From IMG/VR virus record IMGVR_UViG_637000107_000010: 64,000 bases of DNA, one strand, 5' to 3'. A program made the position numbers and the translations under genes. Numbering within the stretch: the stretch's first letter is position 1; the number at the start of each line of letters is the position of its first letter. This DNA is from a virus (Duplodnaviria; Heunggongvirae; Uroviricota; Caudoviricetes). Positions 56,761 to 59,716 of the stretch are shown piece after piece. The notes beneath the pieces are model-generated. The model was given only the letters and a program-made list of their open reading frames with translations. It was not told the origin of the DNA and made no database searches.

Positions 56761-57023
56761 GTGGCTACGCAGACTGAAGTTGCCAGGCATTTAAGTCTGA
56801 CCGATCGCCAGCTTCGCAGATTGCAGAAATTGCCGGGTGCCCCGATATCGAATAAGCGAGGGCAACTGGATCTGGATGCCTGGCGCGATTTTTACATATC
56901 GTATCTGAGGAGAAGTAAAAACGATGTGCCTGATGGCGATAGCGAAGACGACTATGAGGAGAAATTGCTTATTGCCAGATGGGAACTGACAGCAGAACAG
57001 GCTGTTACACAGCAGTTAAAAAA
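56761..57023 (+). pseudogene. nu1: Terminase small subunit (lambda Nu1-like), N-terminal part, interrupted by IS66
   Basis: GTG start ~190 bp after cos, as in lambda; coding continues in frame after the IS at 59462. Confidence 0.7.
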
Positions 57024-57090
57024 GCGTACAGCCTGAACCGTCTGGTCAGAATCTGACGAATTAGACAAAGTGGTGTCCACCAAATAAGTA

Positions 57091-57405
57091 GTGGGAACCA
57101 AAGTATCAGATATGCAGAAAAATGTGACTCCCGGCAGGCGAAAAGGCTGCCCTAATTATCCTCCCGAATTTAAACAGCAGCTCGTTGCTGCCTCCTGTGA
57201 ACCCGGGATATCCATCTCAAAACTTGCTCTTGAAAATGGCATTAACGCCAATCTGTTGTTCAAATGGCGACAACAATGGCGCGAGGGAAAGCTGCTATTA
57301 CCTTCTTCAGAGAGCCCCCAGCTACTTCCTGTGACTCTCGATGCAGCTGCCGAACAGCCAGAATCGCTCGCAGAGGACCCGGAAACCCTCAGTATCAGCT
57401 GTTAG
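57091..57405 (+). pseudogene. tnpA: IS66 TnpA, copy 3, premature TAG stop (104 of 133 codons)
   Basis: TAG at 57403-57405 where the other copies have GAG. Confidence 0.75.
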
Positions 57406-57488
57406 GTAACGTTCCGGCACGGGCCGCTCCGCTTCAATGGCAATGTCAGCGAAAAGCTCCTGACTCTGCTGATACAGGAACTGAAGCG

Positions 57489-57836
57489 ATGATCCCGTTA
57501 CCTTCCGGGACCAAAATTTGGCTGGTTGCCGGTATCACCGATATGAGAAATGGCTTCAACGGCCTGGCTGCGAAAGTACAAACGGCGCTGAAAGACGATC
57601 CCATGTCCGGCCATGTTTTCATTTTCCGGGGCCGCAGCGGCAGTCAGGTTAAACTGCTGTGGTCCACCGGTGACGGACTGTGCCTCCTGACCAAACGGCT
57701 GGAGCGTGGGCGCTTCGCCTGGCCGTCAGCCCGTGATGGCAAAGTGTTCCTTACGCAGGCGCAGCTGGCGATGCTGCTGGAAGGTATCGACTGGCGACAG
57801 CCTAAGCGGCTGCTGACCTCCCTGACCATGCTGTAA
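57489..57836 (+). CDS. tnpB: IS66 TnpB, copy 3
   Basis: Identical to the other copies. Confidence 0.85.
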
Positions 57837-57885
57837 ATCTCTTTATCCTGGTTGTCACAGAATAAGCCCGGTAAAATACGGGCTT

Positions 57886-59424
57886 ATGAACGACATCTCT
57901 TCTGACGACATCTTCCTGCTGAAACAGCGCCTGGCCGAACAGGAAGCGCTGATCCACGCCCTGCAGGAAAAGCTGAGCAACCGGGAGCGCGAAATAGACC
58001 ATCTGCAGGCGCAGCTGGATAAACTCCGCCGGATGAACTTCGGCAGTCGTTCCGAAAAAGTCTCCCGCCGTATCGCACAAATGGAAGCCGATCTGAACCG
58101 GCTTCAGAAAGAGAGCGATACGCTGACTGGTAGGGTGTATGACCCGGCAGTACAGCGTCCGTTGCGTCAGACCCGCACCCGTAAGCCGTTCCCTGAATCA
58201 CTACCCCGTGACGAAAAGCGACTGTTGCCTGCGGCGCCGTGCTGCCCGAACTGCGGCGGTTCACTGAGCTATCTGGGCGAGGATACCGCCGAACAGCTGG
58301 AGTTGATGCGTAGCGCCTTCCGGGTTATCCGGACGGTACGGGAAAAACATGCCTGTACTCAGTGCGATGCCATCGTGCAGGCACCTGCACCTTCGCGGCC
58401 CATCGAGCGGGGTATCGCCGGACCGGGGCTGCTGGCCCGCGTGCTGACCTCGAAGTATGCAGAGCACACCCCGCTGTATCGCCAGTCAGAAATATACGGC
58501 CGGCAAGGTGTGGAGCTGAGGCGTTCACTGCTGTCGGGCTGGGTGGATGCATGCTGCCGGCTGCTGTCTCCGCTGGAAGAGGCGCTTCATGGCTATGTCA
58601 TGACTGACGGCAAACTCCATGCCGATGATACCCCGGTCCAGGTACTGCTGCCGGGTAATAAGAAGACGAAGACCGGGCGGTTGTGGGCGTATGTTCGTGA
58701 TGACCGCAATGCAGGGTCAGCGTTGGCACCTGCAGTGTGGTTCGCTTACAGCCCGGACAGAAAAGGCATCCATCCGCAGACTCATCTTGCCTGCTTCAGC
58801 GGTGTGCTGCAAGCGGATGCGTACGCCGGGTTCAACGAGCTGTATCGCAATGGTGGGATAACGGAAGCTGCCTGCTGGGCTCATGCCCGCCGAAAGATCC
58901 ACGATGTGCACGTCCGCATCCCGTCAGCACTGACGGAAGAAGCCCTGGAGCAGATCGGTCAGTTGTACGCCATAGAGGCGGATATAAGGGGAATGCCGGC
59001 AGAGCAGCGGCTTGCTGAACGTCAGCGAAAAACGAAACCGTTGTTGAAATCCCTGGAAAGCTGGTTGCGTGAAAAGATGAAGACCCTGTCGCGACACTCA
59101 GAGTTGGCGAAGGCGTTCGCGTACGCACTTAACCAGTGGCCGGCACTGACGTACTATGCGAACGATGGCTGGGTGGAAATCGACAACAACATCGCTGAAA
59201 ATGCCCTGCGGGCGGTCAGTCTGGGTCGTAAAAACTTCCTGTTCTTCGGCTCTGATCATGGTGGTGAGCGGGGAGCGCTACTGTACAGCCTGATCGGGAC
59301 GTGCAAACTGAATGACGTGGATCCAGAAAGCTACCTTCGCCATGTGCTTGGCGTCATAGCAGACTGGCCGGTCAACCGGGTCAGCGAACTGCTTCCGTGG
59401 CGCATAGCACTGCCAGCTGAATAA
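57886..59424 (+). CDS. tnpC: IS66 TnpC transposase, copy 3, only full-length copy (512 aa)
   Basis: Complete ORF; N-terminal coiled-coil and zinc-ribbon region followed by the catalytic core. Confidence 0.85.
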
Positions 59425-59461
59425 CACATCCCCGTCAATACGGCCCTCGCTGTACGCTTAC

Positions 59462-59716
59462 TTAAAAAATGAGGTGTCAAAAGGAAAACTGATTGACACC
59501 GGGTTCTGTATTTTTGCCCTCAGTAAGCTGGCAATGGCGTTATCCAGTACGCTTGATTCCATCCCTTTATCCATGCAGCGACAGTTTCCTGATTTAACAC
59601 CGCGCCATCTTGACCATCTGAAAACCCTTATTGCTAAGGGGGCAAATCAGTGTGCGCGGGCAGGGGATAAATTACCGGATTTACTTGATGAATATATCAG
59701 AGCAACAACTGAATAA
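59462..59716 (+). pseudogene. nu1: Terminase small subunit (Nu1-like), C-terminal part
   Basis: ...FCIFALSKLA...LSMQRQFPDLTPRHLDHL resembles the lambda Nu1 C-terminus. Confidence 0.7.

Follow-up and report, generated by a model that had tools for sequence, protein, structure and literature searches.

Does the insertion of a transposable element into the small-subunit terminase gene of a lambda-like prophage prevent the DNA of that prophage from being packaged? This question is raised by a 64,000-nt stretch of viral DNA (IMG/VR record IMGVR_UViG_637000107_000010, referred to as the window), in which the small-subunit gene nu1 is split by ISEc8, an insertion sequence (IS) of the IS66 family. 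An earlier examination of the letters alone, referred to as the sequence-only reading, had placed an IS66-family element in the terminase small-subunit gene of a lambda-like module and had predicted that it blocks cos-dependent packaging. The identity of both partners is borne out by the Pfam matches of the transposition genes, by the Phage_Nu1 domain of the interrupted protein and by a gpA-type large subunit (TerL) downstream. The predicted block is correct with respect to the loss of the prophage's own Nu1 but not with respect to packaging, since Sp4 DNA has been recovered in DNase-resistant particles (PMC2669165). The insertion in nu1 of this E. coli O157:H7 prophage, known as Sp4 in Sakai and CP-933M in EDL933, has very probably cost the prophage its own holoterminase while its DNA is still packaged in trans.

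The nu1 gene was reconstructed from the two parts that flank the element. The 5' open reading frame (ORF) is native from the GTG at 56761 to 57023, then runs through four IS-encoded codons to a stop at 57034-57036, giving a product of 91 amino acids. Residues 86-169 of Nu1 were placed at 59462-59713 by tblastn. In Sakai the 5' part is annotated as ECs_1101 and the 3' part as ECs_1105, 'terminase small subunit'; in EDL933 they are pseudogenes 'missing C-terminus' and 'missing N-terminus', respectively. Excision of 57024-59469, which comprises the element and one copy of the flanking repeat (2,446 bp, or 3n+1), yields a 510-nt ORF uninterrupted by a stop. When both repeat copies are retained nu1 is frameshifted, and in raw window coordinates the halves lie in different frames. 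The claim that the Nu1 frame stops at 57023 and resumes in frame at 59462 is therefore true of the excised sequence and not of the window as it stands.

The reconstructed product has 169 amino acids and is identical at 169/169 positions to WP_000235436.1, the intact, annotated terminase small subunit of enteropathogenic Escherichia coli (EPEC) E2348/69. The two genes differ at 7 nt, all of them synonymous. Alignment of the flanks with an intact Nu1, which the sequence-only reading had proposed as a check, thus gave one continuous frame. The protein scores 67.9 bits with Phage_Nu1 (PF07471; curated cut-off 30) over residues 49-150 and also matches PHROG 57 and PHROG 1790, both 'terminase small subunit'. 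An intact nu1 occurs in 1,154 complete genomes of E. coli, and Nu1 of Escherichia phage PhiR12_2 is 99.4% identical to the reconstruction. O157:H7 genomes carry both nu1 halves together with one intact copy that is identical to the reconstruction at 510/510 nt.

The octamer TTAAAAAA stands on both sides of the element. The empty site in E2348/69 reads CAGCAGTTAAAAAATGAGG and contains TTAAAAAA once. With p ~1.5e-5 for an 8/8 match at two fixed positions, and with only one copy at the empty site, a chance repeat was ruled out. Two ISEc8 controls, on pO157 and in the second full copy in the window, are flanked by the 8-bp duplications GTTCAACG and CTGATGTC, respectively, and captured IS66-family elements yield 8-bp repeats (PMC3281130, Table 2). 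The 8-bp duplication typical of this family, as the sequence-only reading described it, is upheld.

Between the repeats lie three ORFs on the same strand, tnpA, tnpB and tnpC, in the layout of the IS66 family. TnpC also matches zf-IS66, LZ_Tnp_IS66 and DDE_Tnp_IS66_C in Pfam. In RefSeq it appears as 'IS66-like element ISEc8 family transposase', and its alignment with ISEc8 at Sp12 of Sakai shows 99.9% identity across 2,440 bp. Homology to ISEc8 copies in unrelated contexts extends from window position 57022 to 59461. With ISEc8 of Sakai, EDL933 and pO157 the nu1 copy shares the three genes, near-identical DNA, the right inverted repeat and the 8-bp duplication. It differs from reference ISEc8 in lacking the outermost 2-4 nt of the left repeat and, in this record, in two changes in tnpA (E98* and T105P).

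IS66-family elements end in inverted repeats of ~20 bp that start with 5'-GTAAGCG, as in the copies compared here. Six other ISEc8 copies (pO157, FORC 064, ST648, ETEC1732 and two in the window) all begin GTAAGCGTACAGCC. Canonical ISEc8 is 2,442 bp long and reads GTAAGCG...CGCTTAC, so that the nu1 copy, at 2,438 bp, is 4 bp shorter. The shortened left repeat was present in every genome checked, and the junctions were identical in 9 further O157 assemblies. Judging from the letters at the junction, a deletion of 4 nt between the two AA dinucleotides in AA-GT-AA would yield exactly this left end; the bases may have been lost at insertion, or later in this way. Because the left repeat lacks its outermost 2-4 nt, a loss that plausibly immobilizes the element, this ISEc8 copy is probably no longer mobile. 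The description 'complete IS66 element' fits its three genes and its right repeat but not its left repeat, nor tnpA as interrupted in this record. A promoter and terminator scan across the IS gave nothing above shuffled expectation and no terminator-like site on the + strand inside it. The window holds two further stretches of ISEc8. The second full copy, at 25577-28024 (-), has both ends whole and is flanked by the duplication CTGATGTC. A 5' fragment at 20273-21547 (+) has an intact GTAAGCG left end and is cut by IS629 at 21548.

The insertion is not peculiar to this record. By megablast, 292 complete genomes span 56500-60000 whole at 99.9% and have both junctions in common; nearly all among the matches listed are O157:H7. 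In the Sakai record the locus lies inside 'prophage Sp4, lambda-like phage', and window positions 53790-64000 are 99.87% identical to Sakai Sp4. The nu1::ISEc8 locus of Sakai Sp4 (PMC2669165) is the same as that of CP-933M in EDL933, with identical junctions.

What the insertion does to packaging can be judged from published experiments. Disruption of Sp4 nu1 by ISEc8 was reported by Asadulghani et al. in 2009 (PMC2669165). In that study Sp4 circularised after mitomycin C treatment, was amplified through regional replication from the neighbouring Sp5, and was found in DNase-resistant particles after induction of O157 Sakai (Table 2 and text). No transfer of Sp4 to K-12 was seen. The cos sites of Sp4, Sp14 and lambda are aligned in Fig. 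S8, whose legend names ISEc8 and gives Sp4 and Sp14 as identical in both Nu1 and cos; the authors attributed Sp4 packaging to the Sp14 terminase. Because Sp4 DNA is packaged after mitomycin C, the insertion removes the self-sufficiency of Sp4, a defect in cis in its own Nu1, and does not stop packaging in the natural host. The second check proposed by the sequence-only reading was to look for packaged DNA after induction, and the positive result reported for quantitative PCR of DNase-resistant Sp4 DNA in induced lysates speaks against a packaging block in its strong form.

These observations are very probably explained by the following course of events. ISEc8 transposed into codon 87/88 of nu1, duplicating the 8-bp target TTAAAAAA, in the prophage that is Sp4 of Sakai and CP-933M of EDL933 and that carries a lambda-type cos packaging module. 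The insertion is old enough to be common to essentially all O157:H7 genomes with Sp4/CP-933M. Sp4 is no longer able to make its own holoterminase; its cos is intact. Because Sp4 cos is intact and the Nu1 and cos of Sp14 are identical to its own, Sp14 could supply the missing subunit and Sp4 DNA would be cut and packaged in trans.

The source of the window bears on how far its letters can be trusted. Positions 54112-60405 (6,294 nt) are base-for-base identical to AE005174.2 1,903,599-1,909,892, including both tnpA variants, and the window is the 2001 EDL933 assembly AE005174.2 at ~1,849,488-1,913,487. That assembly has more than 6,000 ambiguous calls (PMC4132626). The window itself holds 93 isolated N's and, compared with finished EDL933, ~28 single- or double-base deletions at 49008-49213 and ~10 one-base insertions at 49659-50024; these indels break the portal gene into several ORFs. 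Positions 24672-54250 form a mosaic when compared with Sakai and finished EDL933. The end of Sp12 and the early region of Sp11 (reverse, 99.7-99.9%) are followed by IS629 (46868-48177), then by a Stx1-prophage-type block on the minus strand (protease', portal, TerL and DUF1441 TerS; 98.5%), and from ~53790 by the Sp4 late region. Both joins lie in repeats (IS629 and the shared Rz region), and the arrangement left of ~53790 was found in none of 5,426 complete genomes. In AE005174.2 (~1.90 Mb) the Sp4-type late region has DNA of the Stx1-prophage type and of the Sp11/Sp12 type as its left neighbor, where Sakai Sp4 has the Sp4 early region. The mosaic reflects misassembly or else a rearrangement specific to this stock.

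Over 55000-61500 the window differs from finished EDL933 (CP008957) at only two positions, both in tnpA. A G>T change at 57403 turns GAG into TAG at 57403-57405 (E98*), leaving a TnpA of 97 amino acids, and an A>C change at 57424 gives T105P. The C at 57424 is unique to this record. Codon 98 is GAG in Sakai, in finished EDL933 and at 8/9 other loci, and neither variant was present at this locus in any complete genome among the full-length matches. Because finished EDL933 has GAG and the source assembly is error-prone, the tnpA stop is most likely a sequencing error or a clone-specific change. A real nonsense mutation of the lineage is unlikely on the same grounds and in view of the lack of the variant in complete genomes. 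The 57403 G>T allele is nevertheless a natural variant of other, unrelated ISEc8 copies, which adjoin a flavin monooxygenase gene and a Peptidase_S6 autotransporter gene, and this leaves some probability to a real mutation.

Could the insertion itself be an artefact of such a record, produced for instance when an IS consensus was wrongly assembled into a prophage repeat? Identity with the 2001 assembly, the N's, the ~38 single-base indels at 49008-50024 and an arrangement left of ~53790 that no complete genome shares would all fit a faulty join. However, finished long-read genomes reproduce both junctions with 100% identity, as do the 9 independent assemblies; the complete genomes above cover the locus in one piece, and the insertion has been described in Sakai too, whose genome was sequenced independently. 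An assembly artefact is refuted by these independent finished genomes, and we give it practically no chance. Somewhat better placed, though still unlikely, is the idea that this ISEc8 retains full function and that its insertion is transient and reversible. In its favor, neither tnpB nor tnpC is disrupted here, all finished genomes have an unbroken tnpA and both copies of the duplication have been kept. Yet its left end is without the terminal GT(AA) seen in all other copies examined, an identical junction is fixed across hundreds of genomes, and no emptied site was seen among the O157 genomes inspected, where restoration would be possible by recombination with the identical Sp14 copy.

A further rival, the strong form of the packaging block, holds that packaging of Sp4 DNA is completely abolished. 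No intact nu1 and no second cos lie in the window, and Nu1, which anchors terminase at cosB in lambda, is needed for that step. Complete abolition is nevertheless very unlikely given the DNase-protected Sp4 DNA from induced Sakai cells (PMC2669165) and the identical intact nu1 elsewhere in O157:H7 chromosomes. Packaging in trans remains our preferred reading, against which three points must be set. Sp4 is also defective in repressor, excision, recombination and head functions (PMC2669165, Table 1), and its lysis cassette is inverted; the insertion in nu1 may therefore account for only part of its defectiveness. The role of Sp14 as helper was a proposal of the 2009 authors and not a demonstrated dependency (PMC2669165). 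Finally, the left boundary of the element is ambiguous, as the locus can be parsed as a 2,438-bp IS with an 8-bp repeat or a 2,440-bp IS with a 6-bp repeat. The junction reads TTAAAAAA followed directly by GCGTACAGCC, meaning that GTAA was lost if the duplication is 8 bp and GT if it is 6 bp. The Sakai annotators drew the element as 2,440 bp, giving a 6-bp repeat. Both parses and their intermediates lead to the same empty site, and the terminal GT is gone in all of them.

The packaging signals of the module lie upstream of nu1 (Table 1). The 12-mer at cosN is the cohesive end of lambda, and many lambda-like phages share the cosQ/cosN segment (56480-56610) at 100% identity. The module resembles lambda further in that cosN (56566) precedes the nu1 start (56761), the C-terminal part of Nu1 is related to lambda Nu1, and the end of nu1 (stop at 59716) overlaps the start of the gpA-type gene at 59688. 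Unlike in lambda, the stretch that would hold cosB has repeats of its own, CCGGACATG. Seven matches to this motif occur in the window where 0.64 are expected, three of them within ~100 nt of the candidate cosB. Matches to the 150 nt that separate cosN from nu1 were confined to the PhiR12 phage group, whose Nu1 is of this type. By analogy with cosB of lambda, the CCGGACATG repeats probably serve as R sites that bind Nu1, in a cosB unlike that of lambda.

The insertion falls after residue 87 of Nu1 and separates 87 N-terminal from 82 C-terminal residues. Homology of the lambda type covers ~residues 73-164 at ~46% identity, the alignment beginning only at residue 73. In lambda the C-terminal region of Nu1 contacts gpA. 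For the N-terminal half, sequence comparison detected no similarity to lambda Nu1, whose N-terminal domain is a DNA-binding winged helix, and a sequence search matched it to no PDB chain at E<=10. A helix-turn-helix-like motif is plausible in it from the sequence, and its 87 residues are presumed to be the cosB-binding half. Terminase activity and cosB binding of the intact protein are presumed, with support from the 99.4% identical protein of phage PhiR12_2. We read cosB and Nu1 as a specificity module that would be distinct from that of lambda and common to the PhiR12 phages. The split also seems to have left a trace in the PHROGs database. The profile of phrog_7289 ('unknown function') is 91 residues long, the length of the N-terminal Nu1 ORF as cut by the IS, and phrog_1790 spans the C-terminal 114 residues, beside the full-length family phrog_57. 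The separate families phrog_7289 and phrog_1790 look as if they had been built from IS-split halves of Nu1.

Table 1. Features of the nu1::ISEc8 locus and its packaging module, in window coordinates.
Feature	Position	Strand	Evidence and remarks
cosN cohesive end GGGCGGCGACCT	56566..56577	+	only occurrence in the window
Candidate cosB	56611..56760	+	CCGGACATG at 56615-56623 (-), 56675-56683 (+), 56705-56713 (+)
nu1, 5' part (codons 1-87 plus 2 nt)	56761..57023	+	GTG start; tblastn and reconstruction
Left target-site duplication TTAAAAAA	57016..57023	.	read from the sequence; single at the E2348/69 empty site
ISEc8 (IS66 family), 2,438 bp	57024..59461	+	Pfam genes; Sakai repeat_region 'ISEc8 Family: IS66' corresponds to 57022-59461
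Left inverted repeat, shortened	57024..57041	+	begins GCGTACAGCC/GCGTACAGC; lacks outermost GTAA (at minimum GT)
tnpA	57112..57492	+	126 codons in reference copies; HTH_Tnp_1 (57112-57402) in Pfam
tnpB (IS66 Orf2-like accessory protein)	57489..57836	+	TnpB_IS66 1.2e-38; ATGA overlap with tnpA stop
tnpC (DDE transposase, 512 amino acids)	57886..59424	+	DDE_Tnp_IS66 2e-106
Right inverted repeat, complete	59440..59461	-	ends ...CGCTTAC; reverse complement GTAAGCGTACAGC
Right target-site duplication TTAAAAAA	59462..59469	.	read from the sequence
nu1, 3' part (third base of codon 88 to stop)	59470..59716	+	residues 86-169 when read from 59462
Terminase large subunit (gpA type)	59688..61616	+	GpA_ATPase 6e-54, GpA_nuclease 1.5e-71 in Pfam; RefSeq start

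Two neighboring regions deserve mention. The lysis cassette at 53780-56010 (-) consists of a holin gene (55804-56010), an endolysin gene (54583-55116) and an Rz-type gene (53780-54304). The other strand carries nu1 and the head genes, and the cassette and cos stand head-to-head; Sakai Sp4 shows the same arrangement. Because of this inversion, no upstream late operon reads into the packaging and head genes of the integrated prophage. A second small-terminase gene, of the DUF1441/phrog_141 type, lies at 52849-53325 (-) in the Stx1-prophage-type block. By tblastn it is not a homologue of Nu1, and for this reason it is unlikely to substitute for the split nu1.

The insertion of ISEc8 in nu1 was already annotated in Sakai and published in 2009. 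New in this analysis, and of curatorial interest only, are the shortened left repeat, the tnpA stop specific to this record, and the origin and mosaic structure of the window. A bolder proposal, which we regard as quite improbable, is that the 91-residue Nu1 fragment is expressed, binds cosB, which is identical in Sp4 and Sp14, and acts as a dominant-negative brake on packaging, the frozen IS being a stable, lineage-wide regulatory lesion. If so, the fragment would keep the presumed cosB-binding half of Nu1 without the half that interacts with gpA and would brake both prophages, and the insertion would be a regulatory lesion and not merely a dead gene. More generally, the step from a disrupted gene to a lost function is unsafe in poly-lysogens such as O157:H7. 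A prophage that appears dead by its own sequence can still have its DNA packaged if a co-resident prophage supplies the identical enzyme.

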